From the NCBI GenBank assembly GCA_001303785.1, contig LJUJ01000003.1:14027-78026 (forward strand): 64,000 nt of DNA, written 5' to 3'. Below the pieces are notes generated by a model. The model did not search any database. It was not told the DNA's origin and worked only from the letters and a program-made list of their open reading frames with translations. This document shows positions 28,382 to 63,069 of the stretch, in pieces (the stretch's first letter is position 1; every line of letters begins with the position of its first letter). The position numbers were made by a program, and so were the translations under genes. Source of the DNA: a candidate division WOR_3 bacterium SM23_42 (lineage in GTDB: Bacteria > Hydrothermota > Tepidihabitantia > SM23-42).

Positions 28382-30445
28382 GTGATAAGTGTCGACCATT
28401 TGAAAGAATTGATCGCCAGTGGGGACTTTGATAAGGTAGAAAACCTCTGGACAGATTTGATTACGGAGAGGAATATCGGTCTGGCCGAATACTTTGAGAT
28501 AAGCGATGCCCTTAAGCAAGTTGGTGAGCTCAAACGAGCATGCTTGCTGCTGGAACTGCTCGGCGACCACTACGAGACGCAACGAAATTACAGCGCTGCG
28601 ATCGAAGTGCAAAAACACATGCTACGCTATCGCCAGGAAGATCTCTCAATACGTAAGAGACTAATCGAGCTGTATCGCAAGCAACACCCTAATTCACAAC
28701 ATCTCGAAGAATACTTGGAGCTTTCAGGTTTGAGCAAATCTGACCCCATCATGAAGGCGATGCAGCGATTCGAAGAATTCCTTAAATACGACGTGGGCAA
28801 TTACTTTTACTTTGAGCGCTATGGCATGGGTAAAATCGTTGAAGTAATACCCCAAAAACGGGAAATCGTGGTCGATTTCGAAAAGAAGAATCGCCATTTT
28901 CTCGATATCGACGTTGCCCGGGGACTACTGTCACCGGTTAATGCCGAGCACTTCCTCTACAAGAAAAACAAGGAACTTGATGACTTGAAATCACTGGCAT
29001 CCTCACAACCGGTGCAACTTGTGGTAATGATCCTCCAGAGCTTCCGCGAACCACTCTCCGCGCCAAGAATTAAAGGTTATCTTGAGGGTATAATTGATAC
29101 AACCGAATTGAATTACTTCTGGGGAAAAATCAGGAAAGACCTCGAAAAAAATGATAACGTTAGGGTCGCTGGTAGGACAAATAAGACCTACACATACGTT
29201 GGTTCAGCAGCGGCTAAGCAAGATCACGCGATAAAAGCCTTCAATGAGGCAAATATTCGAGAGAAGTATCTATTGGCTGAAGAATATTTAAAGAAAATGC
29301 CTGAAGTTTTCAACATTCTGACACCAAGACTGAGACAATTAGGTCCCCAGGTTCGAAAAGAACATCCCGGGATTGCCCTCGACATACTTATGCTGTTTCA
29401 TGACATCGGGGAACTCAGCGAGATTGATCATTCAACAAAGGAACTGCTGAACGTGAGTAAGCCTGAAGACATACTCAACGACATGGCAAGCCACGAGCAT
29501 CAAGCCAGGCTACTACTCTATCTAAAGGAAAAATATCCTGACGAATGGCTGCAAACTGCCAAGAAAATATTGCTCAACAGCGAAGATTTCAAATTACTCG
29601 ATTCCGTGGCAGATAACTTGAAAAGCACGCCGCACACACTTGAGGATATTAACCACAAGATATTTGCCATGCCAAAACAATATACTAAACAGTATCTCTG
29701 GATGCTAAAAAGAATCGAAGCAGGTGCTCTCGCCGAATATTTGAAACCCACGCACATTCCCAGATTGATCGACACCCTTGAATACATAAGCGGCATCAAG
29801 GCAATCGTGAAGAAAATATTGTCTCTCGAAGCTTTCGATACTATGATCGCAAACGCCACGGAGAATGAAGCTTCAAGAATACGAAAATCCCTCAATAGAA
29901 GTGCTGCACTGAATGATTACGAAAAAAAAGGTCTCTTAAGGATTATCGAGCATCACTTCCCGGATTTGTTCGAAAAAAAATACGATATAATATACACAAC
30001 TGCAGCTGCGCTAAAAAGAAAAAAAGAAGAACTCAACCATATCCTCAGCGTCGACATACCTGCAAATAAAAAGGAAATTGGCCGGGCGCGTGAGTTCGGT
30101 GATTTGAGTGAAAACTTTGAATATAAGGCGGCCAAAGAAAAACAGGATCAGCTCTACGAGAAAGTGAAAACCATTGAGTCTGAATTGCAGAAGATACAAC
30201 TCATTGAGTCCTTAGAGATAAGGACAGACCGTGTTGAGATTGGAACCGCAATTACGTTAAGAAGCTCCAGGGACAATTCATTCGTCGTGTACAGAATACT
30301 TGGCCGGTGGGATACCGACCTGGCACACAAAACCATTTCTAACGAGGCGCCACTTGCCCGAGCGATGCTGGGTAAAAAACGTGGTGATTCAATTGAAATC
30401 GAGGGCATCGAATACGAAATCGCCGAAATCGGCAAGGCTTTCTGA
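28382..30445 (+). CDS. GreA/GreB-family transcription elongation factor with a ~500-aa N-terminal extension
   Basis: C-terminal ~160 aa matches GreA: EFGDLSENFEYKAAKEKQDQLYEKVKTIESEL...ISNEAPLARAMLGKKRGDSIEIEG. Starts with GTG. Confidence 0.75.
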   Translation: MISVDHLKELIASGDFDKVENLWTDLITERNIGLAEYFEISDALKQVGELKRACLLLELLGDHYETQRNYSAAIEVQKHMLRYRQEDLSIRKRLIELYRKQHPNSQHLEEYLELSGLSKSDPIMKAMQRFEEFLKYDVGNYFYFERYGMGKIVEVIPQKREIVVDFEKKNRHFLDIDVARGLLSPVNAEHFLYKKNKELDDLKSLASSQPVQLVVMILQSFREPLSAPRIKGYLEGIIDTTELNYFWGKIRKDLEKNDNVRVAGRTNKTYTYVGSAAAKQDHAIKAFNEANIREKYLLAEEYLKKMPEVFNILTPRLRQLGPQVRKEHPGIALDILMLFHDIGELSEIDHSTKELLNVSKPEDILNDMASHEHQARLLLYLKEKYPDEWLQTAKKILLNSEDFKLLDSVADNLKSTPHTLEDINHKIFAMPKQYTKQYLWMLKRIEAGALAEYLKPTHIPRLIDTLEYISGIKAIVKKILSLEAFDTMIANATENEASRIRKSLNRSAALNDYEKKGLLRIIEHHFPDLFEKKYDIIYTTAAALKRKKEELNHILSVDIPANKKEIGRAREFGDLSENFEYKAAKEKQDQLYEKVKTIESELQKIQLIESLEIRTDRVEIGTAITLRSSRDNSFVVYRILGRWDTDLAHKTISNEAPLARAMLGKKRGDSIEIEGIEYEIAEIGKAF

Positions 30446-35566: not shown

Positions 35567-35683
35567 TTGAAAATTCTATTCAATTTTACTTTGATGTCAA
35601 GTGTATGGGCAAATTCACACCCTGGAGTGTGTTATCCAAAAAAATGCCCCGCCTTGAGGCGGGGCATTTATGATGTTATCGAA

Positions 35684-37000
35684 CTAAACTTGTTGATATT
35701 GCTGCCAGCGTCTTTCCAAGTTTGAATCGGACATCGTCGTCATTATGTAATCGCAGAACTCATTACCGGTTGCGCCCGTCGAACGTCCGGTCATCACCAG
35801 CTTCTTTTCATACTGACCGCATATATCAAGGGCCATTTCCAGCTTCTTTGCCAACGCCACATAACCGATATGATTGAGAAGCATGGACCCGGCTCTGATA
35901 ACACTACTAGGGTCTGCATACTGGGCGCGTCCTTCCTTCACCATGCGCGGGGCACTACCGTGAATAGCTTCAAACATGGCATAGCGCTTGCCGATATTCG
36001 CGCTGCCAGCCGTGCCTACACCACCCTGAAATTCCGCGGCTTCATCAGTGAGAATATCACCATAGAGATTGGGCAACACCATCACCTTGAACTGTCGACG
36101 CCGCTTTTCATCAACCAGTTTTGCGGTCATGATGTCAATGAACCAATCGTCGGCGTTGATCTTCGGATATTCTTTCGCGATCTGATAGAAAGTCTTTAAG
36201 AAAAGGCCATCCGTGGTTTTCACAACATTCGCTTTGGTTACTGCGGTCACACGATCGATATTGTTCTTCTTGGCGTGTTCGAAGGCCAATCTGATTATGC
36301 GATCGCTGCCCGGTTTGGTGATGAGTCTGAAGTCGATAGCCACATCCGGTGTTACCTCGACGCCAAATGGTCCAAGCGCATAAACATCTTCGGTGTTTTC
36401 CCGAAAGAACATCCAATCGATGCCAAGAGCAGGAACACGTACGGGCCGTACATTGGCAAACAGATCCAGCTCCTTACGCATCGCCACATTCGCACTTTCA
36501 ATATTCGGCCAGGGATCGCCCTTTTTTGGCGTTGTCGTTGGTCCTTTCAGGGTCACGTGGCATTTCTTAATCTCCGTCAGGACATCATCAGGAATCGGTT
36601 TCATGACTTTCGATCTCTTTTCGATCGTCAACCCTTCAATCACGCGAAACTCAATCTTGCCTTTCGCAACCTCACCTTTTAACATATGCTCTAGAACCCG
36701 CTGTGCCTCATTCGTAATATAAGGTCCGATTCCATCACCGCCAATCGTGCCAATAATCACCGGCCTGAGGACCGCATAGTCGATCCAGTTTTGCGCCTTC
36801 TTCAAGCGTCTGACTCTTGCGAGCTGGGTCTCGAGAATTCCTTGAAAGTGATGCTGAGCTTTGATAATGGAAACAGGTACCTTAGCTTTCGGGACGGCCT
36901 TTTTCTTAGTGACTTTCTTGGTCTTTTTGGCTTTTGGCGATCTTCTCATCTTCTTAGCTCTCCGCACCTTTTTCGATGTCCTTCTTTTGGTCTTTTTCAT
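35684..37000 (-). CDS. icd: Isocitrate dehydrogenase (Icd-type beta-decarboxylating dehydrogenase) with ~45-aa lysine-rich N-terminal extension
   Basis: GGDGIGPYITNEA, SANVAMRKELDLFANVRPV and NLYGDILTD...GSANIG match Icd. Preceded in-frame by MKKTKRRTSKKVRRAKKMRRSPKAKKTKKVTKKKAVPKAKVPV. An AAGGAG RBS sits 8-9 nt upstream of the ATG at 37000. Confidence 0.85.
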   Translation of the reverse strand: MKKTKRRTSKKVRRAKKMRRSPKAKKTKKVTKKKAVPKAKVPVSIIKAQHHFQGILETQLARVRRLKKAQNWIDYAVLRPVIIGTIGGDGIGPYITNEAQRVLEHMLKGEVAKGKIEFRVIEGLTIEKRSKVMKPIPDDVLTEIKKCHVTLKGPTTTPKKGDPWPNIESANVAMRKELDLFANVRPVRVPALGIDWMFFRENTEDVYALGPFGVEVTPDVAIDFRLITKPGSDRIIRLAFEHAKKNNIDRVTAVTKANVVKTTDGLFLKTFYQIAKEYPKINADDWFIDIMTAKLVDEKRRRQFKVMVLPNLYGDILTDEAAEFQGGVGTAGSANIGKRYAMFEAIHGSAPRMVKEGRAQYADPSSVIRAGSMLLNHIGYVALAKKLEMALDICGQYEKKLVMTGRSTGATGNEFCDYIMTTMSDSNLERRWQQYQQV

Positions 37001-37018
37001 CTTGTCTTCTCCTTTTAA

Positions 37019-37522
37019 CTAGTCTAATCTAAAATCACCATGCTTCTCAATATGGGCCAGAAGTCCGCCATCATTCAAGATATTCAACATCGCCTTGGGC
37101 AATGGGTGGGCTTTAAGTTCGATACCTTTTGTCCTATTATGGATAGTACCGGTCGCAAGGTCGATCGCTATTTCGTCATCCTGCTCGATTTTATCGGTAT
37201 CACATTCGAGAAGCGGGAGACCCACGTTTATTGCATTACGATAGAAGATACGCGCAAACGACTTAGCCAGTACAGCCGAGACTCCAGCAAGTTTTATAAT
37301 CGTAGGAGCGTGCTCCCGAGAACTTCCCAATCCAAAATTATTACCCGCTACTACAAAATCCCCTTCAGCCATCTTTGATGCGAAGTCCTGATCGGCGTCT
37401 TCGAGAACATGCTTGGCAAGCTCTGGCAAATTCGAACGCAGGTGGAAGTATCGACCTGGGCATATTAGATCAGTCGAGATGCTGTCGCCAAACTTCCAAG
37501 CCTTTCCTTTTAGAATCATCAC
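37019..37522 (-). CDS. LeuD-type small subunit of a 3-isopropylmalate dehydratase/homoaconitase-family hydro-lyase (type 2, ~165 aa)
   Basis: [22 protein letters not shown]... matches the short (archaeal-type) LeuD/HACN small-subunit family. Confidence 0.85.
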
Positions 37523-37547
37523 AAACCTCCTGGCTCTACTGGTTTCT

Positions 37548-38828
37548 CTAACCCTTTGCCACTGCCTGCTTTACCCATTCAGTGGTTACCGACTTTGGTC
37601 TTTCTATCGCCTCACCCAACGCACGACTCACAATGAGTTGCGCGCACATACCCATTGCTCGCGATACTCCAAATAGAACTGTGTAATACTCAAACTCAGT
37701 TAAACCAAAGTGGTATAGTAAGCAACCCGAGGCCGCGTCCACATTTGGCCAGGGATCTTTCGCCTTGCCATGTTCTTTCAGCACTCCAGGTATAACCTTA
37801 AACACCTTGTCAACGATCTGGAAGTAAGGATCCTCGGCACAAGCACGGGTGCCGAATTCATGGAAGGCAGCATAACGGGGATCGGTCACGCGAAGCACGG
37901 CATGACCGTAACCGGGAATAACCTGACCAGAATTCAAAGTATCCCATGCAAATTGCTTCAGTTGCTCGTCGGTCGGCACACCACCGAACTTCTCCTTAAC
38001 CATCATTACCCAACGTAGACACTCCTGGTTCGCCAAACCATGTAACGGCCCGGCCAAGCCATTCAGTCCGGCCGACACAGCATAATAGGCATCAGAAAGC
38101 GCCGACCCGACACAATGACAGGTATGGGCACTGACGTTTCCGCCCTCATGGTCAGAGTGCAGAACCATATATAACCGCATGAGATTCTTGAATTCACCGC
38201 TCGGGTCTGAAATACCCAGCATGTGTGCAAAGTTGGCTGCCCAATCTAGATTCGAGTCAGACTCAATCCTTGGGCCTTTGTCAAACCTCATACGATAAAT
38301 ACCTGCTGCAAGGTTAGGCAGCTTGCCAATAAGATTCATGCAATCTTCCAGTGTATACCGCCAGTATTCTTCTTTCTTGATTCCCTCGGTGTATTTCTTT
38401 CTGAATACCGACTCCTTCTCCATCGCCAGAATACCGAGGCTGAACATCACCATGGGATGCGAATCCTTAGGCATCGCTTCCAACGTCTTCCATACATAGT
38501 CGGGAACCTGCGCACGGCCTGCTAAATCTTTCTTCATCGACTCCAATGCCTCATCGTCGGGCATCTCGCCGGTTATCAGCAAATAGAAAACAGCCTCGGG
38601 TAGTTTGTCTTTCAATTCTCCGATCGGGCGACCACGAATGATGAGTCCCTGGTCAGGCGGCACCACGGAAGTGTCGCAGACGAGCGCTTTCACTCCCCTC
38701 ATGCCTCCATATGCTTGCCTGACCTTGACTTCAGATATGGTCACCTCGGCATTCTTTTTCACAAAAGCTTTAATTTCATCCCGGAGTGCCGGGACTTTCT
38801 GATTCATTACATCCATGATCTTAGCCAT
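37548..38828 (-). CDS. gltA: Citrate synthase (GMRG-containing type)
   Basis: VRQAYGGMRGVKALVCDTSVVPPDQGLIIRGRPI and the catalytic regions HSDHEGGNVSAHT and ...VIPGYGHAVLRVTDPR... Confidence 0.9.
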   Translation of the reverse strand: MAKIMDVMNQKVPALRDEIKAFVKKNAEVTISEVKVRQAYGGMRGVKALVCDTSVVPPDQGLIIRGRPIGELKDKLPEAVFYLLITGEMPDDEALESMKKDLAGRAQVPDYVWKTLEAMPKDSHPMVMFSLGILAMEKESVFRKKYTEGIKKEEYWRYTLEDCMNLIGKLPNLAAGIYRMRFDKGPRIESDSNLDWAANFAHMLGISDPSGEFKNLMRLYMVLHSDHEGGNVSAHTCHCVGSALSDAYYAVSAGLNGLAGPLHGLANQECLRWVMMVKEKFGGVPTDEQLKQFAWDTLNSGQVIPGYGHAVLRVTDPRYAAFHEFGTRACAEDPYFQIVDKVFKVIPGVLKEHGKAKDPWPNVDAASGCLLYHFGLTEFEYYTVLFGVSRAMGMCAQLIVSRALGEAIERPKSVTTEWVKQAVAKG

Positions 38829-38867
38829 AGTATATCCTCCTTACTTTTCATAAAAATCATTGAAACA

Positions 38868-40172
38868 TCATCTCTTTTTTCCTTTTTTAACAGTCTTCCT
38901 TATCGTCTTACGTTTTCCCTTGGAAAAAAATTCTCTCGGATCACTAATCTCCCCGTTGATCGCTGAATAGGCAGCGGTGGCAGGCGAGGCTAGGTACACA
39001 AATCCTTCAGGATTACCCATACGACCACGAAAATTGCGGTTAGCGGTCGAGAGACAAACCTCACCATCACCGAGGACACCTTGATGCACGCCAACACACG
39101 GACCACATCCCGGACCCATGACAATACCACCAGCGCGCACAAAGACCTCCAATAAACCCGACTTCATGGCTGAGAGATAAACCTCACGGGAAGCGGGGAC
39201 CACCACCAGCCTCGTATCGGGTGCTCGCTGCCTGCCCCTGAGTATTCTTGCCGCGATCTTCAAATCCTCTATACGCCCGTTGGTGCACGTCCCAAGGAAT
39301 ACCTGGTTCACCTTAACACCCTTTGCTTCCGTTACACTCCTTGTATTATCCACGGTGTGCGGAAAGGCAATTTGAGGCACTAGTTTGCTTGCATCTATTT
39401 CGATTACGCGTTCGTACTTCGCGTCCTTGTCTGGTCTTAGTAGTCGCCAATCTCTGATGCGGCCACGAAGTCTCAGGTATTCTTTCGTCTTCCTGTCGGA
39501 CGCAATCAGTCCAGTTTTGGCACCTGCTTCGACTGCCATGTTGGATAAAACAAAACGTGCCTCCATAGACATCTTCTCGATTGCCCGACCGCCGAATTCC
39601 AACGCCTTATAAGTTGCACCATCGGCTCCTAGCATACCGATGAGATAGAGTACCAAGTCTTTTGAATATACCCCGGGTGGAAAATCGCCTTTGACCTCAA
39701 CCCGGAAAGTCTCCGGAACCTTTAGCCACGTCTTACCCATCGCCATCCCAATTGCAACATCTGTCGAACCCATGCCTGTGGCAAAGGCGCCCAATGCACC
39801 TGAAGTGCAGGTATGTGAATCGGCACCGATCACGACATCTCCTGGCTTGGCATGAGATTCAACCAGCCGCTGATGAATGACACCGTCACCAACTTCCGAA
39901 AGTAAAGCACCTGTTTTCTTACTGAACGCACGCAGCAGCATATGGTCATTGGATAATTCTTTGCGGGGCGATGGTGCCGCGTGGTCGATGAAGAGAATCG
40001 ATTTCGGAGCCCGAACCTTTTCAAGATGCATTTTCTGAAGCTGACGCACGCCGAGTGGACCAGTCCCGTCCTGGAAAGCAGCAACATCAACGCTAGCGAT
40101 CACTATGTCACCAGCATGTGCATCCTGACCGCTTTTCTCGGATAGAATCTTTTCCGCTAAGGTCTTACCCAT
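38868..40172 (-). CDS. LeuC-type large subunit of a 3-isopropylmalate dehydratase/homoaconitase-family hydro-lyase (aconitase superfamily)
   Basis: MGKTLAEKIL...GDIVIASVD...FQDGTGP N-terminus, Fe-S ligand regions (ADSHTCTSGALGAFA; GTCTNGRIED; GPGCGPCVG); about 434 aa, the short archaeal-type LeuC/HACN. Confidence 0.9.
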   Translation of the reverse strand: MGKTLAEKILSEKSGQDAHAGDIVIASVDVAAFQDGTGPLGVRQLQKMHLEKVRAPKSILFIDHAAPSPRKELSNDHMLLRAFSKKTGALLSEVGDGVIHQRLVESHAKPGDVVIGADSHTCTSGALGAFATGMGSTDVAIGMAMGKTWLKVPETFRVEVKGDFPPGVYSKDLVLYLIGMLGADGATYKALEFGGRAIEKMSMEARFVLSNMAVEAGAKTGLIASDRKTKEYLRLRGRIRDWRLLRPDKDAKYERVIEIDASKLVPQIAFPHTVDNTRSVTEAKGVKVNQVFLGTCTNGRIEDLKIAARILRGRQRAPDTRLVVVPASREVYLSAMKSGLLEVFVRAGGIVMGPGCGPCVGVHQGVLGDGEVCLSTANRNFRGRMGNPEGFVYLASPATAAYSAINGEISDPREFFSKGKRKTIRKTVKKGKKR

Positions 40173-40316
40173 CTTGCCTCCATTCTATGATTAAACGTGG
40201 GATATTTATTTAATATTAACAGATATCCGATACAACAAGGCGCATTATTATAACGAAATATGTGATGAAGTCAAGATTTCTGAGCTACATAATTGAGGAC
40301 TACGTTGCTCTCCAAA

Positions 40317-41839: not shown

Positions 41840-44800
41840 ATGAAAACTTGTCCAGTCTGCAATAATCAGAGCGTCCCCGGCTACGCAAATCATTGTCCGA
41901 ATTGCGGCGTAACACTCACGGCATACAAGAAGCAAACCGTAGAGGCCGAGCGCCTCCGGCTGTTGGGTGGTGAACTCAGACTGCTAACAGTATTCTTCGT
42001 GCAATTGATAGGCATCGAAAAGTTGATAAAAAGGGACACCGATGAAACGATAGAAAAACACATCCAGGATTTTCTGACCAACATCGAGAAGATCATTCAA
42101 GACTATGACGGAACGTCAAATCGTATCATTCCTGACTTCCGCATCCTGGGTATCTTTGGCGCCCCACATGCACACTATGACGACCCCTTGAGGGCAATAC
42201 GTTGTGCAAGCAATATCCAAGACTGGTGGCTAAAAAGCAAAAAGGAATCTAAGTTCCTCAGGAACGTCGATACGAGAATCGGAGTTAACACCGGCCGGGC
42301 ATTTTTCGGTTTCGTGCTTAAGGAATCACCATTCTTGACTGTCATTGGAGACACCATCAACACCGCGGCGCGCCTCACCGAAATAAGCCAGCAAAATGAG
42401 ATACTAATGACCAAGACCACGTACAACGCGGTGCTACGATATGCAGACGTCACACATATTGGCGAACAGGCGGTTAAAGGTAAAAAAACCAAAGTCGATA
42501 TCTACCGGCTCAGCAAAATCAGAACCACACCAAGAGTAACTGAGCCGCAGAGAATGCCGCTCTACGGCCGTGAGGCCGAATTGAAAAAATTGATTGCCCT
42601 TGCCGATAGGTTAGCCGACCATCGTGCAGTCTATTGCGCTATCAACGGGCAAATGGGCAGTGGGAAGAGCAGGCTTAAGGAGGAATTTGCATTTCATTTA
42701 AGCAGGAATGAAGCAATCAATCATTTTGAAACGAACTGCTCGGTCGATGTGCAATCACCATACTATCCTTTCAGGTCCTTACTCAGACGTTTTTTAGACC
42801 TGCACGAGTTCGACAGCCAGGATACCATGACCAAACGGATTCACGATGTGGTTGGTCAGAGAGAGCTTAGTCCACCCATCGCCAAGGGTATTAAGCACTT
42901 GCTCTTAACCGATATCGGCCGGTTGCGCAGCGAAGACATACGCGCGGTCAACGATGAAATCTACGCCTCGGTGCGCAATTTCATAAGGAGTGAATGTCGG
43001 CAAAAAGCTCTGGTACTGATCTTCGAGAATTTTGGCCAAGCCGATGTGATGTCCAAGGAGTTAATCACATATCTGATCTCCGAACTCGAAGACGAACCAA
43101 TAATGTTTCTGCTGATAAATGCGCCCGACAAGTTTCTCCAAACGGCCTCAATTCCCGTCGATAGAATTGACCTGAAACCTTTATCAAAGAAAGACATCTA
43201 TGCGCTGATTCGACATATGCTCACCAATGTTGATAAACATCTAGCCGACTTCATATATCGTGAAGCAGGCGGTAGTCCACTCTTCACAATCGAAGCCATC
43301 CGCAACACACGGCGCAATAAAATTATAAAAAAGGTCTCGGGAACGTGGTGTTTGGAAAAAGAACAGGTACTGGTTTTTCTCGATGACCTTTACGGATTAG
43401 TCATGTCGACGATCGATTCCCTTGCCTCTAACGCGCGTCTTATTATTGATTATGCCTCGGTCATCGGCTACCGTTTCAGCTTCCGCATATTGAAAGAGCT
43501 CCTTGCTTGGCCTGATTTGAAAGCACAGCTGGACTACCTGATTGCTGAGGGATATGTCGTACTGTCGTCAGACGGCGAAGATCCAGTATACATTTTCCGT
43601 CACAATCTACTCAAAGACGCCGCCTATCAAGTGCTCCCGGTTAGAAAACGAAAAGAAATACATCAAAAAGTGGCGTCTCTTTTCGAACAGGTATACCGCG
43701 ACACTTTGTCCACGTTTTACGAAGACGTCGCAAGGCATTATCAGGCCTCCGACCGACATGCGCGTGCTGCCGAGTATTTTAAGCTGGCCGGCGATAAGGC
43801 AAAGAACCTCTACGCGATTGATCAGGCATTGTCTTTTTATGAACAAGTTCTGAATACGAAGAACGAAATCGGGGATGAACTACCAAAAACCCTATACCAG
43901 GACGTCATGCTGAACTTGGTAGACATCTATGAAATCAAGGGTGACATCAAGAAGATGGAAAGAACGGCGCGGGAACGACTTGCTGATGCACGTCAGGACA
44001 AGGACCTAAAAAATGAGGTATTGTTTGCGGAACGTGACGCATATGCGCTCATACTACTTAACAAAACAGAAGAAGCGGAGCAACTATTAATATCCAGCAT
44101 AGACAGATGCGACGAGCAAATGGTAAGCATCCTAGCCATCTTGTATTCGGATTTAGGCATGCTCTATGCAAACAAATATGAATACGATAAGTGTCTCATA
44201 AACTACAATCTGAGTTGGAGAACGGCACACGCTAACAACATACGAGAAGCTGAGATAGTGTGCCTGTTCAATCTATCGAATCTGCACAAGAGCCTGGGCA
44301 ACTATGAACAGGCATTGGACTATCTGCAACATGGTTTGGAGATCCTTATCGATGCCGAGGATATCAGAAGGAACATCGAACTGCAATATCTGATTGCGAA
44401 CATCGACTATGAAATATGGAATATTGAAAAAGCCAAGGGACTGCTAGCAGAGTGCTTCATGACCGCGGATTCTATTGGCAGTTTTGACGCATACATAAAG
44501 TCCGCGTTGGATCTTGCTTTCATCCATTCACTCAACGGCGATGTACGGCAGGTAGAAAAATACCTGCAATCTGTCGATAAGAAGATATCATTCCTCATTC
44601 GTGAGAGCCTGCTTGCCGAAATCGACCTAAAAAAGGCACTGGTCTATTTCAACAATCAGGAATACAAGAAGGCACGTGATTACGTAGTGAACAGCATGAG
44701 AATTGCCGAAAAGTCATACCGCGCAGAGATCGTGTTCCAATGTCAAAGGTTATTGTCCCTGATCGACAAACAACATGACCTAGAACATGCCAAAAAGGCA

Positions 44801-45016
44801 CTCGAGCTAGCAGAACTAATGAAACTACCACCTTTGATCGCCGCCGCTCTGTATAGGGTCACCGAAATCTTTTCAGAGAAGGGTGATATTGAACGGGCAC
44901 GCTACTACGGAAGAAAAGCCTTGCTAGTCTATGATGACATAAAATCGCGACTCAATGATAAGAACCAGCAACATTATGTGAATCGACCTGAATATACGAG
45001 GCTGCTGGAGATTTAG
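41840..45016 (+). CDS. Multidomain signalling protein: N-terminal zinc ribbon + class-III nucleotide-cyclase homology domain (metal-binding Asp residues substituted) + STAND/AAA NTPase + TPR repeats
   Basis: CPVCNNQSVPGYANHCPNCG. Cyclase homology domain (CHD): TVFFVQLIGIE has Gln where the first metal Asp is expected, RILGIFGA has Ile where the second is expected, but RIGVNTGRAFFG and IGDTINTAARLTE retain the transition-state Asn/Arg. Walker A GQMGSGKSRL; long TPR-like C-terminal half. Confidence 0.8.
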   Translation: MKTCPVCNNQSVPGYANHCPNCGVTLTAYKKQTVEAERLRLLGGELRLLTVFFVQLIGIEKLIKRDTDETIEKHIQDFLTNIEKIIQDYDGTSNRIIPDFRILGIFGAPHAHYDDPLRAIRCASNIQDWWLKSKKESKFLRNVDTRIGVNTGRAFFGFVLKESPFLTVIGDTINTAARLTEISQQNEILMTKTTYNAVLRYADVTHIGEQAVKGKKTKVDIYRLSKIRTTPRVTEPQRMPLYGREAELKKLIALADRLADHRAVYCAINGQMGSGKSRLKEEFAFHLSRNEAINHFETNCSVDVQSPYYPFRSLLRRFLDLHEFDSQDTMTKRIHDVVGQRELSPPIAKGIKHLLLTDIGRLRSEDIRAVNDEIYASVRNFIRSECRQKALVLIFENFGQADVMSKELITYLISELEDEPIMFLLINAPDKFLQTASIPVDRIDLKPLSKKDIYALIRHMLTNVDKHLADFIYREAGGSPLFTIEAIRNTRRNKIIKKVSGTWCLEKEQVLVFLDDLYGLVMSTIDSLASNARLIIDYASVIGYRFSFRILKELLAWPDLKAQLDYLIAEGYVVLSSDGEDPVYIFRHNLLKDAAYQVLPVRKRKEIHQKVASLFEQVYRDTLSTFYEDVARHYQASDRHARAAEYFKLAGDKAKNLYAIDQALSFYEQVLNTKNEIGDELPKTLYQDVMLNLVDIYEIKGDIKKMERTARERLADARQDKDLKNEVLFAERDAYALILLNKTEEAEQLLISSIDRCDEQMVSILAILYSDLGMLYANKYEYDKCLINYNLSWRTAHANNIREAEIVCLFNLSNLHKSLGNYEQALDYLQHGLEILIDAEDIRRNIELQYLIANIDYEIWNIEKAKGLLAECFMTADSIGSFDAYIKSALDLAFIHSLNGDVRQVEKYLQSVDKKISFLIRESLLAEIDLKKALVYFNNQEYKKARDYVVNSMRIAEKSYRAEIVFQCQRLLSLIDKQHDLEHAKKALELAELMKLPPLIAAALYRVTEIFSEKGDIERARYYGRKALLVYDDIKSRLNDKNQQHYVNRPEYTRLLEI

Positions 45017-57852: not shown

Positions 57853-60825
57853 CTATCGTGCCACCATCAAGGATTTTGTTTCAATATATTGGCCAGCCAT
57901 AAAACGATAGAAGTACACTCCATTGGCTAGTCTTCTGCCGGCAATATCATCGACATCGATACTTATCCCGTAATAACCATATGACAGATTTTCATCCATC
58001 AACACAGCTATTTCTTGGCCGGTGACATCATAGAGCCTGATTTCTACCCTGCACGGTTCTGGGATTGCGTATTTTATCAACGTTCTACTCGAAGATGGAT
58101 TCGGGCAGTTCTGCTGAATAGAAAAGACGGTCGGCCGACCGGCTGATTGATTCTCTTCTATTGCCAACGGCGGGATTGTGAAGTCTCCGTCACTTTCGTC
58201 ATAATTGGCAGAAAATGCTAGGTAAGTAACCTTCACCCTGCCTTCGGTCGTCGGTGTGTTTGGTACGGACCAGGTATGAATACCGTCGTCCGGGGTATCG
58301 GAATCGATTATCAGCCAGCTCGATCCACCGTTGGTAGAATATTCGACAGCAACGTTGCCGTCGATGCCTGCCGGCGCCCAAGTGATATCGTGACTCTCTC
58401 CGATATGCCAGGTTTCACCACCATTGGGTGCGGTCACGACAATCTGACTGCAGACAGTGAAGTCAGCGTCACTCTGGTCAAAGACCGCAGGATCACTAAT
58501 ACTAGTAATCTTGACCTGATAATCAGTGCCCGGCAGTTGTCCCGCGGGTATGTTCCAACTGTACGACCCACTGTTAGCCGTGCTGCTCACTATCGTGCTG
58601 TTAAAAACGCCGCCCTTGTAGAGTTCGATCTTCACATCGCCACTCACTCCGCTACTCATCCAGGTAATTTCGTAAGAATTTCCGCGTATCCAACCCTCAC
58701 CACCATTCGGCGATGTGACGGTGATGCCGTATTCTGTAATTGCGAAGTCACCATCACTCTCATCATAATTGGCAGCGCAAGTCAAATGAGTTGCCTTGAC
58801 CCTACCTTGAGTTGTCGGTGTAGCGGGTATGGTCCACGGGTAACTACCGTTATCTAATGTGTCCGAGGTCACCGTATTCCAGGTCGACCCAGCATCGGTC
58901 GAGTACTCTATCGAAACGTTGCCGCCGATGCCTGCCGGCGCCCAGGTGATATCATAGGTCTCACCGATATGCCAGGTTTCACCACCATTGGGTGCGGTTA
59001 CGATGATCTGACTACAAATGGTAAAATCTGCGTCACTATGGTCAAAGACTGCAGGATCATTAATACTAATTATTTTAACCTGATAGTCAGTGCCCGGTAG
59101 TTGCCCCGCAGGTATTACCCAATTGTACGACCCACTATTAGCTGTGCTGCTTACTATCGTGCTGTTAAAAACACCACCCTTGTAGAGTTCAATCTTCACG
59201 TCGCCGCTCACCCCGTTACTCGTCCAGGTAATATCGTAGGCATTCCCCCGTATCCAGCATTCACCGCCATTCGGCACGGTCACTATAATATAATCACCGA
59301 TATTGTAAGAAATACTCATTTCATACAGACACGGCAACAAGGCAGGATTAGTATAGATTAGCGATGTCATATACTGAATGTATTGAGAATTCAATGAATC
59401 TGGCACCGGTTCACCGTTACCTAACATGCACCAATCCGACCAGGTCGGGTCATAAGAAGGCGTATTACCAGTTCTAACACAGCACTCAATTGATGCCCCA
59501 GATGGCAGACTATCATCCCACTCAACCGTACCCCAGTCGCTGGTCTGTCCAGCATCGAACACCGAAGAGATATATGGTTCGTTGTAGTTGCGATCATAGA
59601 CATTACCGATCTCACGAAACATGCCGTGATGATCATTGTTCACTGGTAATTCCGTGTAAGTCGTGAATTCACTTCCCCAAAACACATAGCTGTGTGAACC
59701 GGGTGTAATCGCGTTGCTGAAGATATCTAAGTCACCATCATTATCGAAATCAGCGACTAGCCCTCCACTAGCTTCGATTGGAATACCGATATACGATATA
59801 CTAGTATCATGATAACCGGCAGCACTGCCCCAGTATATTTCCTGCTGGTGCTTTCCATACCCTCCACGGTGAAAGACGATATCCAAGTAGCCATCTTTGT
59901 TAATATCCGCTGCAGCACTTCCTCCGTAACAATAACCTGGATTCAGCACCTGCATATTTGAACCGGAGTAGCCAGTTGAATCACCCCAATATATGTGTGC
60001 CGCCGGATCATACCAATAAGTATACACAATATCGAGGAAGGCGTCGCAGTTCAGGTCGGCCACAGTGACACCATGTGAACCCCAAATAGCCGGGAAGGAA
60101 GTGAAGTTCGTCGGTGAAAATCCCGTACTCGCTCCCCAATATATTCGGTAGGTTTCAGTTGGCCACGTTGCGGCCACGAATAGTACGTCGAGCCAATTAT
60201 CCTTGTTGAAATCCGCCACTTCAATGTTATGCTGACCCATTTCCACAGGTAGGTCGATGCGATTGCTGAAGTTGAAACCAGACGCGCTTCCCCAAAAGAC
60301 AGATCCGTATCCCGGCAAGGTTACATCCATGGCGATATCCAGGTAGCCATCCTTATTGAAGTCGGCTACAAAGCAGGCCTCACCTTCTGCCTGTAGAAGC
60401 ATTATATCTGAATAACCATAAGGACCGGGGCCCGTGGGGCTACCCCAGTACACCGTGAGCTTCGGAGTGTACTTATGAGTCACAATGAAATCAGCGTAGC
60501 CATCATTATCGACATCAGCGGCATCGCAATTACCGGAACCACTACTTGGAAATTGGGTCAAGCTGCCAGGTGAATAGCCACTCGCACTGCCCCAGTATAA
60601 TTTTACGTATGGACCATGACGATCCGCGGTAAATAAGTCGATATAACCGTCGTTGTTCAGGTCGAATCTGGGCGCGAATTCTACGGCGCCTCCGTCAAGA
60701 TGTGAGGCGTAGATATTTCTTTCGAAAATACCATCTGCGAAATCTTCTTGAGTGGTCTCGGTCCAAAGGCTTGCGTGGGCCATGCACACAATAAGTATTG
60801 AACACACGAATGGCCTCACAATCAT
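57853..60825 (-). CDS. Large secreted protein: FG-GAP-like repeats + 4 tandem Ig-like (Kre9/KNH-like, PNGGExW) domains + T9SS-type C-terminal sorting domain
   Basis: Signal peptide; about 7 repeats of the D.N.DGY.D. calcium-binding FG-GAP type with YWG motifs. Four domains begin (I/V)TAPNGGE(T/G)W...ITW. The C-terminus LANGVYFYRF...ETKSLMVAR resembles T9SS C-terminal domains. Confidence 0.7.
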   Translation of the reverse strand: MIVRPFVCSILIVCMAHASLWTETTQEDFADGIFERNIYASHLDGGAVEFAPRFDLNNDGYIDLFTADRHGPYVKLYWGSASGYSPGSLTQFPSSGSGNCDAADVDNDGYADFIVTHKYTPKLTVYWGSPTGPGPYGYSDIMLLQAEGEACFVADFNKDGYLDIAMDVTLPGYGSVFWGSASGFNFSNRIDLPVEMGQHNIEVADFNKDNWLDVLFVAATWPTETYRIYWGASTGFSPTNFTSFPAIWGSHGVTVADLNCDAFLDIVYTYWYDPAAHIYWGDSTGYSGSNMQVLNPGYCYGGSAAADINKDGYLDIVFHRGGYGKHQQEIYWGSAAGYHDTSISYIGIPIEASGGLVADFDNDGDLDIFSNAITPGSHSYVFWGSEFTTYTELPVNNDHHGMFREIGNVYDRNYNEPYISSVFDAGQTSDWGTVEWDDSLPSGASIECCVRTGNTPSYDPTWSDWCMLGNGEPVPDSLNSQYIQYMTSLIYTNPALLPCLYEMSISYNIGDYIIVTVPNGGECWIRGNAYDITWTSNGVSGDVKIELYKGGVFNSTIVSSTANSGSYNWVIPAGQLPGTDYQVKIISINDPAVFDHSDADFTICSQIIVTAPNGGETWHIGETYDITWAPAGIGGNVSIEYSTDAGSTWNTVTSDTLDNGSYPWTIPATPTTQGRVKATHLTCAANYDESDGDFAITEYGITVTSPNGGEGWIRGNSYEITWMSSGVSGDVKIELYKGGVFNSTIVSSTANSGSYSWNIPAGQLPGTDYQVKITSISDPAVFDQSDADFTVCSQIVVTAPNGGETWHIGESHDITWAPAGIDGNVAVEYSTNGGSSWLIIDSDTPDDGIHTWSVPNTPTTEGRVKVTYLAFSANYDESDGDFTIPPLAIEENQSAGRPTVFSIQQNCPNPSSSRTLIKYAIPEPCRVEIRLYDVTGQEIAVLMDENLSYGYYGISIDVDDIAGRRLANGVYFYRFMAGQYIETKSLMVAR
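58174..59292. repeat. Intragenic tandem duplication (2 x ~565 bp) encoding two pairs of alternating Ig-like domains
   Basis: Near-identical DNA blocks, e.g. ...gatatgccaggtttcaccaccattgggtgcggt(c/t)acga... at ~58420 and ~58965. Protein residues 512-699 versus 700-884 are >85% identical. Confidence 0.6.
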
Positions 60826-60951: not shown

Positions 60952-63069
60952 TCAATCGAGTACAACTATTTTCTCAGTCTTGTTTATTCCTTCACCTTCT
61001 ACTTTGTATAGATATACACCTGCTGGTACCTTGCGCCCAGAATTGTCTCTTCCGTTCCAAATTGCCACTGCGTGGGTTTCTGAATATTCAATTTCATCTA
61101 TTGTGCGCACCAACTCTCCTATGATATTATATATCTTCACGGAAATCGCTGCCTCGCTAATTGGCGTAACGGATATGACTGTCCGGGCGCTAAAGGGGTT
61201 TGGACGGCATGTTATGTCTATATAGTAATCGGTGCCGATCACACATACCGTATCATACCCATGGAACGATGTTCCATCATACAGCTGACCCGTCACCTGA
61301 AACTCCACGGCTGACGCGGGCATGACTCCGGATAAATCCTGAACATTGAACTCGGCAATGAAGAATTCAGGCGTCGCGCTACCCAAAACCGCTAGTGCTC
61401 CCTCGCACCCGATAGTTGAAAGGTCAATGTCTTCATGATCATAGCCAGTGGGTAGAGTAATAAGCGCAGTGAATCTACCTTGACTCCCCAGATTGATCGT
61501 CTCCGGCTTAATACTGACGACCGCGTTTATCTGTGCCGCACCGTCATACGTGATGCTCACCTCTTTGAGCGACGGCAGGTAGCATGGATTATCGTAAGTA
61601 AACCCTGCTTTGTATTGCAGATAACGGGCGTTTAAGGCATCGGGGATCGAATCGCCGTTATTGACTGAACACCAATCCGACCATGTCGTGTCAGGAATAG
61701 CCGTGCTTCCACTACGCACCCAAAACAGAACAGCTGAACCGGTTGGAGTATCAGCACACCACTCGATCGTGCCCCAATCAGTACATGCATAAGCATCGAG
61801 TATTGAAGACGCATAGTCTTCGCAGTATGCACGATCGTAGACATTACCGATCTCTCGGAACACACCATGATGGTCTTGGATGGCCGGCAGTACGTTACAA
61901 GTGCTGAATGAAGGACCATAAAAGACGTAACTGTGTGTGGTAGGCGTTCTCGTATTGCAGAAGATATCTAAATGTCCATCGATGTTAAGATCTGCTACGA
62001 GGCCACCTGATGTCTCAAGGGGAATACAGGCGTCAACATAATTGCTGTTCGAGTAACCCGACGCACTTCCCCAGTATATCTTCTGGTATGCAACACCATA
62101 CCCTCCTCTATGGTATATTATGTCCAGATACGAATCTTTATTCATGTCAGCAACTGAACTGCCTCCGTAGCAATATCCCGGATCCAGAATCTGCATATTT
62201 GATGGCGAATAACCCGACTCATCACCCCAGTATATGTAGGATTGTGGATCATACCATCCTGTGCTCACTACATCAAGCCAGCCATCAGCGTCAAGGTCTG
62301 CAATCGAGGTGCCGGTGTTGCCGCCCGGACCCATTATTACGCTCATGTTTGACGGAATAAAACCGTTGCTACTTCCCCAGTATATTCTAATCGGGCTCGA
62401 GTCATAGCCGTAGTACTCTATGAAAAGAATATCGAGCCACGTGTCCTGGTTAAAATCAGCCACCTCAATATTATGGATACCGAAATACACAGGTAAATCA
62501 GTACGGTTGTTTATGTCGTATCCGCTGGCACTTCCCCAGAGAACCGCACCGTTACCCGGAGTGAATTCCTGTGATGTTGCAATATCCAAGTAGCCATCTT
62601 TGTCGAAGTCTGCCACAAACACACCTTGTCGATTGTAAGCAACCATCGGAAAATCAAGAGAGCTCTGCGGGTTAGGCCCGGCTGCGCTACCCGCATAGAT
62701 CGAAACCTTCTCAAAGTAGTGTGCAACCACAAACTCAGGATACCCATCACCATCCAGGTCTGCTGCATCGCAATTCGCTCCACCGCTACTCGGAAACATA
62801 GTCACGTTGCTTGGCGAATAACCGCTTGCATCACCCCAGTAGATCCTCACATATGGACCGTACCGGTCCGCAGTGAACACATCTATATAGCCATCGCCGT
62901 TGAGGTCAAATCTGGGCGCGAATTCTACAGTACCGCTATCAAGATGCGAGGCGTAAATATCCCTTTCGAAAATACCATCTGCGAAATCTTCTTGCGTGGT
63001 CTCGGTCCAGATACTTGCGTAGGCTGTACAGATAATACATACTGCACTTATGAATAACCTTGTGATCAT
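60952..63069 (-). CDS. Paralogous secreted FG-GAP-repeat protein with T9SS-type C-terminal sorting domain
   Basis: The first ~75 aa are nearly identical to the upstream paralog (…WTETTQEDFADGIFER.IYASHLD.G.VEFAPRFDLN.DGYID.FTADR.GPYV). Same FG-GAP/YWG repeats. C-terminus ...VPAGVYLYKVEGEGINKTEKIVVLD. Confidence 0.7.
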   Translation of the reverse strand: MITRLFISAVCIICTAYASIWTETTQEDFADGIFERDIYASHLDSGTVEFAPRFDLNGDGYIDVFTADRYGPYVRIYWGDASGYSPSNVTMFPSSGGANCDAADLDGDGYPEFVVAHYFEKVSIYAGSAAGPNPQSSLDFPMVAYNRQGVFVADFDKDGYLDIATSQEFTPGNGAVLWGSASGYDINNRTDLPVYFGIHNIEVADFNQDTWLDILFIEYYGYDSSPIRIYWGSSNGFIPSNMSVIMGPGGNTGTSIADLDADGWLDVVSTGWYDPQSYIYWGDESGYSPSNMQILDPGYCYGGSSVADMNKDSYLDIIYHRGGYGVAYQKIYWGSASGYSNSNYVDACIPLETSGGLVADLNIDGHLDIFCNTRTPTTHSYVFYGPSFSTCNVLPAIQDHHGVFREIGNVYDRAYCEDYASSILDAYACTDWGTIEWCADTPTGSAVLFWVRSGSTAIPDTTWSDWCSVNNGDSIPDALNARYLQYKAGFTYDNPCYLPSLKEVSITYDGAAQINAVVSIKPETINLGSQGRFTALITLPTGYDHEDIDLSTIGCEGALAVLGSATPEFFIAEFNVQDLSGVMPASAVEFQVTGQLYDGTSFHGYDTVCVIGTDYYIDITCRPNPFSARTVISVTPISEAAISVKIYNIIGELVRTIDEIEYSETHAVAIWNGRDNSGRKVPAGVYLYKVEGEGINKTEKIVVLD

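Follow-up and report, generated by a model that had tools for sequence, protein, structure and literature searches.

Four co-directional genes lie on the minus strand of the 64,000-nt stretch of contig LJUJ01000003.1 analyzed here (the window), which comes from candidate division WOR_3 bacterium SM23_42. In the order of transcription, they encode a LeuC-like large hydro-lyase subunit (38868..40172, a 434-aa open reading frame [ORF]), a citrate synthase (CS; 37548..38828, 426-aa ORF), a LeuD-like small hydro-lyase subunit (37019..37522, 167-aa ORF from a GTG), and a dehydrogenase of the Iso_dh family (35684..37000, 438-aa ORF). The ORFs thereby confirm a four-gene layout that an initial annotation had read from the letters of the window. 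For the LeuD-like gene, the ATG at 37519 is the likelier start; it gives a protein of 166 aa and matches the public gene call. We conclude that the LeuC/LeuD-like pair is probably the aconitase of a module leading from citrate to 2-oxoglutarate, the role that the initial annotation had assigned to it. Support comes from the gene order, from a distinct clade with its own substrate-recognition loop, from gene context across phyla, and from the zero aconitase entries of a published KEGG table.

The genes are tightly spaced, with gaps of 39, 25, and 18 nt (28 nt in place of 25 if the LeuD-like gene starts at its ATG). The gaps had initially been given as 18–45 nt; the tight spacing holds, with these measured values replacing that range. 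A GGAGG-type ribosome-binding site precedes every one of the four genes. Upstream, a sigma-70-like promoter (40247..40274, minus strand; TTGACT, 16 nt, TATAAT), identified by consensus match only (11 of 12 positions), lies ∼75 nt 5′ of the LeuC-like ATG. Downstream, an intrinsic terminator (35642..35669, minus strand) with a 12-bp stem containing eight G-C pairs, followed by TTTTTTT, lies 15 nt past the dehydrogenase stop codon, and the next gene, fabG, has its own promoter at 35600..35573. The predicted promoter and terminator enclose exactly the four genes, and on these signals the genes are predicted to form one transcription unit. The same locus is also present on one Logan contig. No other gene of the aconitase superfamily, for a CS, or of the Iso_dh family was found in the 64-kb window; in particular, the reported lack of an AcnA/AcnB-type aconitase holds for its full length.

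Family membership and active-site residues of the hydro-lyase

Both subunits are members of the archaeal-type two-subunit LeuC/LeuD branch of the aconitase superfamily. The large subunit matches the Pfam Aconitase domain (339 bits) and exceeds the cut-offs of TIGR01343 hacA_fam (577 bits, cut-off 385.7), NF001614 (574.7 bits, cut-off 385), and TIGR02086 (564.6 bits, cut-off 410.15). The small subunit has an Aconitase_C domain and exceeds the cut-off of TIGR02087 LEUD_arch (189.5 bits, cut-off 108.95). The pair falls outside the AcnA, AcnB, mitochondrial, and fused PRK07229 aconitase families, with all aconitase equivalog models scoring far under their cut-offs (for example, NF005558 at 387 vs. 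612 and TIGR01340 at 163.7 vs. 825). Along the fused PRK07229 model, the large subunit matches positions 1–422 (387 bits) and the small subunit positions 477–642 (95 bits). Canonical aconitases and the fused PRK07229/TIGR01342 aconitases are single chains of 650–900 aa, whereas the WOR-3 pair is encoded by two genes split by the CS gene. They nonetheless share the superfamily and, as we propose, the reaction; the cluster cysteines and the Ser-Arg pair within GSSRE are retained, and a Gln aligns with Gln72 in the WOR-3 protein.

The residues expected of an iron–sulfur hydro-lyase are in place. In the large subunit, GTCTNGR and GPGCGPC line up with the [4Fe-4S] cysteine motifs of pig mitochondrial aconitase (mAcn), with all three cysteine cluster ligands kept in the alignment, and the catalytic motif GSSREHA is present in the small subunit. 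Gln34 of the large subunit (40071..40073) aligns with Gln72 of mAcn, a residue that contacts the substrate; characterized isopropylmalate isomerases (IPMI), homoaconitases (HACN), and bacterial LeuC proteins have His at this position. A scan of the large subunit for diagnostic positions, fixed in the clade described below and absent elsewhere, yielded only R238, which lies in a variable region, and no such position was retained.

A basic recognition loop marks a distinct LeuC/LeuD clade

In LeuCD-type enzymes, a flexible small-subunit loop sets substrate preference, as summarized from work on Methanocaldococcus jannaschii and Pyrococcus horikoshii (PMC7308503). By alignment, the loop of the small subunit encoded here is PGRYFHLRS (residues 22–30; 37433..37459, minus strand), compared with PARYLV-YT in the IPMI subunit MJ1277, PGPYLRT-T in the HACN subunit MJ1271, and PGRY-NLTK in P. 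horikoshii. It is basic and one residue longer than the loops of these three proteins. The form PGR(Y/F)FHLR(S/T) was invariant across all clade members collected, including its Arg, which may take the place of Arg580 of aconitase. Among the 150 best LeuD-family representatives (50% clustering), the exact loop occurred in four and close xHL[RK][ST] variants in ∼10 more; the remainder had other loops, mostly ARYLNTSDP. Two fused LeuC-LeuD representatives (P0273 and P0284), considered as fused aconitases with the same loop, were ruled out because their loops are different. In neighbor-joining trees of both subunits, the loop-bearing sequences grouped in one clade that excluded M. jannaschii IPMI and HACN. 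This separation is the outcome of a phylogenetic check that the initial annotation had called for.

The proteins are labeled 3-isopropylmalate dehydratase by NCBI, UniRef, and the Joint Genome Institute (JGI), and these names would be right if the pair were the ordinary IPMI of the leucine pathway and its citrate-cycle setting incidental. The closest solved large subunit is indeed M. jannaschii IPMI, and that IPMI/citramalate isomerase (MJ0499, PDB 4KP1/4NQY; MJ1277, PDB 3VBA) has the same two-subunit architecture and the same Fe-S and GSSRE motifs. It differs, however, in carrying His at the Gln72 position of mAcn, NPSCSAC where the clade has GPGCGPC, and the loop ARYLV-YT where the clade has GRYFHLRS; it lies outside the clade in both trees; and its substrates, in the synthesis of leucine and isoleucine, are hydrophobic. 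The loop of the WOR-3 protein is not of this hydrophobic IPMI type, and both subunits missed the IPMI equivalog cut-offs (large subunit, TIGR02083 LEU2 at 481.3 vs. 610.65; small subunit, TIGR02084 leud at 191.9 vs. 245.85). A CS gene is inserted between the subunit genes in ∼30 genomes, and linkage to isocitrate dehydrogenase (IDH) recurs across phyla with two types of IDH (see below). An Rfam scan found no leader RNA or riboswitch anywhere in the window, and thus neither a leader nor a T-box upstream of the operon. We consider an ordinary leucine-pathway enzyme highly improbable.

Citrate synthase and dehydrogenase

The CS, whose gene sits between those of the two hydro-lyase subunits, exceeds the cut-off of NF007128 citrate (Si)-synthase (572 bits, cut-off 344). 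Its score with the eukaryotic-type model TIGR01793 is 535.7 bits (under the equivalog cut-off of 619.75), vs. ∼110–165 bits with the models of bacterial types I/II, and its best solved relatives are of the mitochondrial type (pig CS, 459 bits). Together, the TIGR01793 score and the pig CS match bear out an earlier remark that its GMRG motif is typical of a mitochondrial-like enzyme. The motifs GGMRG, LHSDHEGGNVSAHT, GPLHGLANQE, PGYGHAVLRVTDPR, and PNVDA are kept, and the catalytic His-His-Asp motifs are present as LHSDHEGGN, GPLHGLANQE, and PNVDA. A precedent for such a gene set is the Bacteroides fragilis operon of aconitase, IDH, and CS, reportedly described by Baughn and Malamy in 2002 as encoding "mitochondrial-like" enzymes. 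That operon is said to be likewise a compact citrate-to-2-oxoglutarate unit with a eukaryote-like CS, in an anaerobe of the wider Fibrobacterota–Chlorobiota–Bacteroidota (FCB)-group neighborhood. Its aconitase is reportedly monomeric and of the mitochondrial type, whereas the WOR-3 operon has a LeuCD-type pair instead.

The dehydrogenase matches PF00180 Iso_dh with 224.6 bits. Its top equivalog models are IDHs, although it missed all NCBIfam equivalog cut-offs (NF006673, 274.7 bits vs. a cut-off of 509). It had initially been taken for an Icd-type enzyme, a label that has to be withdrawn: TIGR00183, the model of the Escherichia coli Icd type, gave 159.7 bits vs. a cut-off of 567. Instead, the protein belongs to a divergent subfamily related to the small homodimeric and NAD-type IDHs. 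Among solved structures, the IDHs 6lky, 6m3s, and 2d1c are its best matches and outrank homoisocitrate and isopropylmalate dehydrogenases, and S169-A170-N171 (36488..36496), within ESANVAMR, aligns with the S-x-N-V-x-x-R of 6lky and 6m3s. JGI names the orthologs isocitrate dehydrogenase (NAD+), and NCBI gives family-level names only. The NAD+ label may be wrong, and use of NADP+ is plausible, because R352-M353 (∼35940–35950, within HGSAPRMVKEGRAQYADP) occupies the positions that discriminate between NAD and NADP. NAD enzymes have Asp-Ile at these positions, and E. coli Icd has Lys-Tyr.

These two enzymes also bear on a homoaconitase-type reading, in which the pair would serve 2-oxoacid chain elongation or the α-aminoadipate pathway and the CS-like and Iso_dh-like proteins would act on homologous substrates. 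The top NCBIfam subfamily of the large subunit, hacA_fam, points this way, as do the best small-subunit model, methanogen HacB2 (198.4 bits vs. a cut-off of 230), and the Arg that the clade loop shares with the HACN loop. Methanogen HACN (MJ1003, PDB 4KP2; MJ1271, PDB 2PKP) is likewise a two-subunit enzyme acting on tricarboxylates, with a GPGCGPC-type motif in common. Its loop, GPYLRT-T, is however one residue shorter and has its Arg placed elsewhere, so that the clade loop is unlike YLRT in both length and sequence. The partners differ as well. Methanogen HACN is partnered by AksF and a homocitrate synthase of the LeuA family, whereas the clade pair is accompanied by CS and IDH. The condensing enzyme of the operon is a canonical citrate (Si)-synthase and not a member of the LeuA/homocitrate-synthase family; the dehydrogenase has the isocitrate S-x-N; and in other phyla the pair comes with a genuine NADP-Icd that clears its equivalog cut-off and whose gene lies beside mdh, fum, suc, and kor genes. 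Nor did the subunits reach the homoaconitase equivalog cut-offs, either with NF040615 HacA (large subunit, 473.6 vs. 550) or with the HacB models NF040625, NF040604, and NF010629 (small subunit, 198.4 vs. 230, 153.6 vs. 230, and 140.5 vs. 229, respectively). The homoaconitase and ordinary IPMI readings are both contradicted, because the CS and Icd partners are canonical and the equivalog scores fail; a homoaconitase role thus appears very unlikely.

A methylcitrate cycle was also considered, as KEGG calls some WOR-3 CS proteins prpC. It was rejected because the S-x-N motif speaks against it and because that pathway relies on a lyase in place of a beta-decarboxylating dehydrogenase.

Gene neighborhoods across phyla

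A LeuC-type scan, limited to one genome per species, recovered ∼40 loci. The order LeuC-CS-LeuD-IDH was found in ∼30 of them, with LeuC identities of 73%–88%, and all carriers were WOR-3 or "Stahlbacteria" metagenome-assembled genomes (MAGs), six complete chromosomes among them. Complete WOR-3 chromosomes with the pair are CP070795, CP070705, CP070686, CP070664, CP070834, and CP070802. Variants of the order keep the linkage, with LeuD-IDH-LeuC-CS in one locus (L029) and LeuC-LeuD-IDH in two others (L032 and L042). For metagenomes, the search pattern was degenerate DNA encoding nothing but the loop (T-D-x3-P-G-R-[YF]-F-H-L-R-S), so that the genes next to the loci recovered in this way are unselected.

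Pooling genomes and metagenomes gave 160 loci with a LeuD bearing the loop signature, many of them on short contigs. Alongside the signature LeuD we found LeuC in 141 loci, IDH in 97, CS in 63, mdh in 14, fumarase in seven, kor in six, and sucCD in three. Neighborhood counts were limited to the 80 pooled loci with at least 1.5 kb of flanking sequence on each side of the signature LeuD. The WOR-3 order was present in 31 of these, LeuC-LeuD followed directly by IDH/Icd in 26, and other citrate-cycle genes in seven; an IDH gene was thus directly downstream in 57 of the 80 and a recognized citrate-cycle gene present in 64.

At most loci outside WOR-3, the IDH partner is a different enzyme, a canonical NADP-Icd, which passes TIGR00183 in an Ignavibacteria MAG (L038, 666 bits), a Zixibacteria chromosome (L200, 670.7 bits), and an "Acidobacteria" MAG (L201, 700.6 bits). 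Eukaryote-like and type II CS both occur among the clade loci. Linkage of the pair, in different phyla, to two IDH types that are not orthologs and to two kinds of CS suggests a shared function at the citrate/isocitrate step and is hard to explain otherwise; the non-orthologous IDH/Icd partners, specifically, argue for function rather than for common ancestry of the cluster. Several clusters extend further into the citrate cycle. The clade genes stand in sucC-sucD-korDABC-ndk-larA-mdh-LeuC-LeuD-(two LiaF-like)-icd in Zixibacteria (CP070742), in LeuC-LeuD-icd-mdh-fumA-fumB-ndk in the "Acidobacteria" MAG, and in korDABC-ndk-CS-x-LeuC-LeuD-icd in the Ignavibacteria MAG. The pair is also found in Mcinerneyibacteriota MAGs, and Elusimicrobiota MAGs hold it without a recognized citrate-cycle gene alongside.

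A gene of the LarA family (nickel-pincer racemases) recurs between ndk and mdh (L200:6034-7281; also in L099, L186, and L190). For LarA-family genes in clusters with the clade pair, the best models are malate racemases, under the cut-off.

The trees also contain a sister LeuC/LeuD clade (L044:8001-12842, from a Planctomycetia MAG, and L041 and L045) with the loop GRYKFSITD. In L044, the sister-clade pair adjoins a gene for a 363-aa IDH-like protein, whose best-scoring models are IDHs at values under the cut-off, and a gene of the malate/lactate dehydrogenase family, assigned from its N-terminal sequence only. The sister clade is possibly a second LeuCD-type aconitase-like group.

Canonical aconitase in WOR-3 genomes

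A 2025 survey of 181 WOR-3 MAGs judges the tricarboxylic acid (TCA) cycle from CS, IDH, and Kor, states that its presence "remains controversial," and calls the cycle complete in 44 MAGs on the basis of these three enzymes alone (PMC12542636). Aconitase is absent from the text of the survey, and the gap is undiscussed. In its Table S4, of which columns for 44 of the ∼181 MAGs were covered, K01681 (ACO/acnA) and K01682 (acnB) are 0 in all 44 WOR-3 MAG columns; several of them have a 1 for CS or prpC and for IDH. For the MAGs in these columns, the zeros fit the premise that canonical aconitase is absent. As for a substitute, the enzymes named in a 2021 overview of the superfamily are aconitase, AcnD, HACN, and IPMI, along with AcnX, and the portions of it drawn on here mention no heterodimeric aconitase (PMC8184944). 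We found no description of a heterodimeric or LeuCD-type aconitase in the full-text literature; subscription journals could hold one.

The same survey bears on the direction in which the enzymes work. Run reductively, they would carboxylate 2-oxoglutarate to isocitrate and convert it to citrate, which a reversible CS would cleave, as in the reversed oxidative TCA cycle; the question is then one of direction and not of enzyme identity. Genes of the reductive TCA cycle (gltA, frd, and kor) have been raised for 11 WOR-3 genomes (PMC12542636), and korDABC, sucCD, mdh, and fumarase genes are clustered with the pair in the Zixibacteria and Ignavibacteria MAGs. Against this, the sdh/frd rows are 0 in all 44 of the Table S4 columns, which makes a full reductive cycle unlikely in most WOR-3, and no kor, suc, mdh, or fum gene lies near the operon in the window. 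Nothing in the sequence fixes the direction of flux. Overall, we regard reductive operation as decidedly unlikely.

Weighing the aconitase assignment

Several observations weigh against assigning aconitase activity to the pair. Sequence identity to characterized IPMI and HACN subunits is only 45%–53% (large subunit, 50% to M. jannaschii IPMI and 45% to HACN; small subunit, ∼53% to both MJ1277 and MJ1271), and that of the large subunit to a real aconitase, the pig mitochondrial enzyme, is 32%. Family models alone would label the pair IPMI/HACN-like. At the position of mAcn Gln72, Gln is present in 77 of 88 clade members, with His in 10, and it also occurs in the sister clade; because it is therefore not unique to the clade, we treat Gln34 as supportive but not diagnostic. 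No citrate-cycle neighbor was recognized in 16 of the 80 well-flanked loci, two of which have an Icd gene missed by the distance filter, leaving ∼14–16 such loci. The absence of canonical aconitase from Table S4 depends on KEGG assignments for MAGs that are incomplete, and the columns cover 44 of ∼181. Finally, in one MAG of the WOR-3 lineage labeled Candidatus Stahlbacteria (E29_bin50), a second Iso_dh paralog lies directly upstream of the clade's LeuC-CS-LeuD genes (L011:6708-7838). It encodes a 376-aa protein that resembles LeuB and homoisocitrate dehydrogenase and scores under all cut-offs, and it hints that the hydro-lyase of that lineage may have a second substrate or a wider role.

This last gene is one point in favor of a promiscuous hydro-lyase that would combine the roles of aconitase and isopropylmalate/citramalate isomerase (or homoaconitase) as the sole LeuCD-type enzyme of small genomes. 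P. horikoshii LeuCD has reportedly been proposed to be dual-specific, and loop variants of HACN are said to turn promiscuous. Each complete WOR-3 chromosome had one LeuC-type locus in our scan, a weak point because the peptide patterns used were derived from WOR-3. Set against such breadth, an unvarying basic loop in all these phyla points to a single, strongly selected polar substrate, and citrate-cycle genes dominate the neighborhoods. No leuA-like or ilv genes were recognized beside the pair in the loci examined, in which no systematic search for them was made. A promiscuous enzyme seems unlikely.

Basic extensions and other genes in the window

The LeuC-like subunit ends in a polybasic, disordered C-terminal tail (FFSKGKRKTIRKTVKKGKKR; 38868..38930, minus strand), recognized by its K/R-rich composition. 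Across WOR-3, this composition is kept in the tails of LeuC and the dehydrogenase, but the sequence is not. A polybasic LeuC tail was found in at least 32 of the 88 clade members and in none of ∼36 non-clade LeuC proteins. Zixibacteria-type members carry extensions of 130–150 aa that end in histone-H1-like KKAxKK repeats; coordinates for tailed proteins outside the window are L200:9480-9989 and L038:8001-9305. That the tails bind polyanions or nucleic acids is speculation.

At its other end, the dehydrogenase has an 80-aa N-terminal extension ahead of the Iso_dh domain. The first ∼42 aa (36875..37000, minus strand) are Lys/Arg-rich by composition, and this basic stretch was found only in a subset of the WOR-3 orthologs; the ATG at 37000 has a strong ribosome-binding site in front of it. 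The following ∼38 aa (residues ∼43–80; 36760–36875, minus strand) are conserved in the ortholog alignment, with A48, H51, F52, Q59, R62, W72, and Y75 invariant in 44 orthologs, and lie outside all alignments to solved IDHs. An AlphaFold2 model built from 44 close orthologs, of low confidence overall (mean predicted local distance difference test [pLDDT] score of 64.7), predicted residues 1–38 to be disordered and residues 43–66 to be helical, the latter at low confidence (pLDDT ∼50).

Elsewhere in the window, several further genes were noted. A GreA-like protein of 687 aa (28382–30445) has GreA/GreB domains only at residues 537–683, preceded by a 530-aa N-terminal part without a Pfam match. 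Two adjacent paralogous FG-GAP-repeat proteins of 990 and 705 aa (57853–60825 and 60952–63069) have near-identical N-termini, and one of them has a C-terminal FlgD_ig/CHU_C domain (type IX secretion). A 1058-aa protein (41840–45016), whose gene is placed divergently near the upstream neighbors of the operon, combines an adenylate/guanylate cyclase domain, an AAA_16 ATPase domain, and TPR repeats with an N-terminal zinc-ribbon-like Cys motif, which was read from the sequence and has no Pfam match.

Proposed pathway and implications

In the module that we propose, oxaloacetate and acetyl-CoA would be converted to 2-oxoglutarate in three steps. The eukaryote-like CS would yield citrate. The LeuC-like large subunit, with its [4Fe-4S] cluster, would pair with the LeuD-like small subunit, and this heterodimer would then dehydrate citrate to cis-aconitate and rehydrate this to isocitrate, with the basic loop YFHLR, in place of the hydrophobic IPMI loop, recognizing the extra carboxylate, perhaps with help from Gln34. 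The Iso_dh-family enzyme would finally decarboxylate isocitrate oxidatively to 2-oxoglutarate. Flux would run in the oxidative direction, as a branch feeding glutamate synthesis.

We infer from the sequences that a distinct LeuC/LeuD subfamily took over the role of aconitase in WOR-3 and in several mostly uncultured lineages, represented by Zixibacteria, Ignavibacteria, and Mcinerneyibacteriota MAGs. A broader proposal, to which we give even odds, is that the subfamily is an unrecognized monophyletic family of two-subunit aconitases, systematically annotated as 3-isopropylmalate dehydratase, that has displaced AcnA/AcnB in WOR-3, Zixibacteria, some Ignavibacteria, and further uncultured lineages, with the H1-like polybasic tails of many members pointing to an added role in binding polyanions or nucleic acids.

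If the clade is an aconitase, then a step of central metabolism is missed, or placed in leucine synthesis, in every automatic metabolic reconstruction of these phyla, and the PGR(Y/F)FHLR(S/T) signature would permit simple re-annotation. The chemistry itself would not be new; the case would be one of a paralog displacing a core enzyme. It would also provide a natural example of how a small-subunit loop can retune LeuCD-type hydro-lyases from hydrophobic substrates to tricarboxylates.

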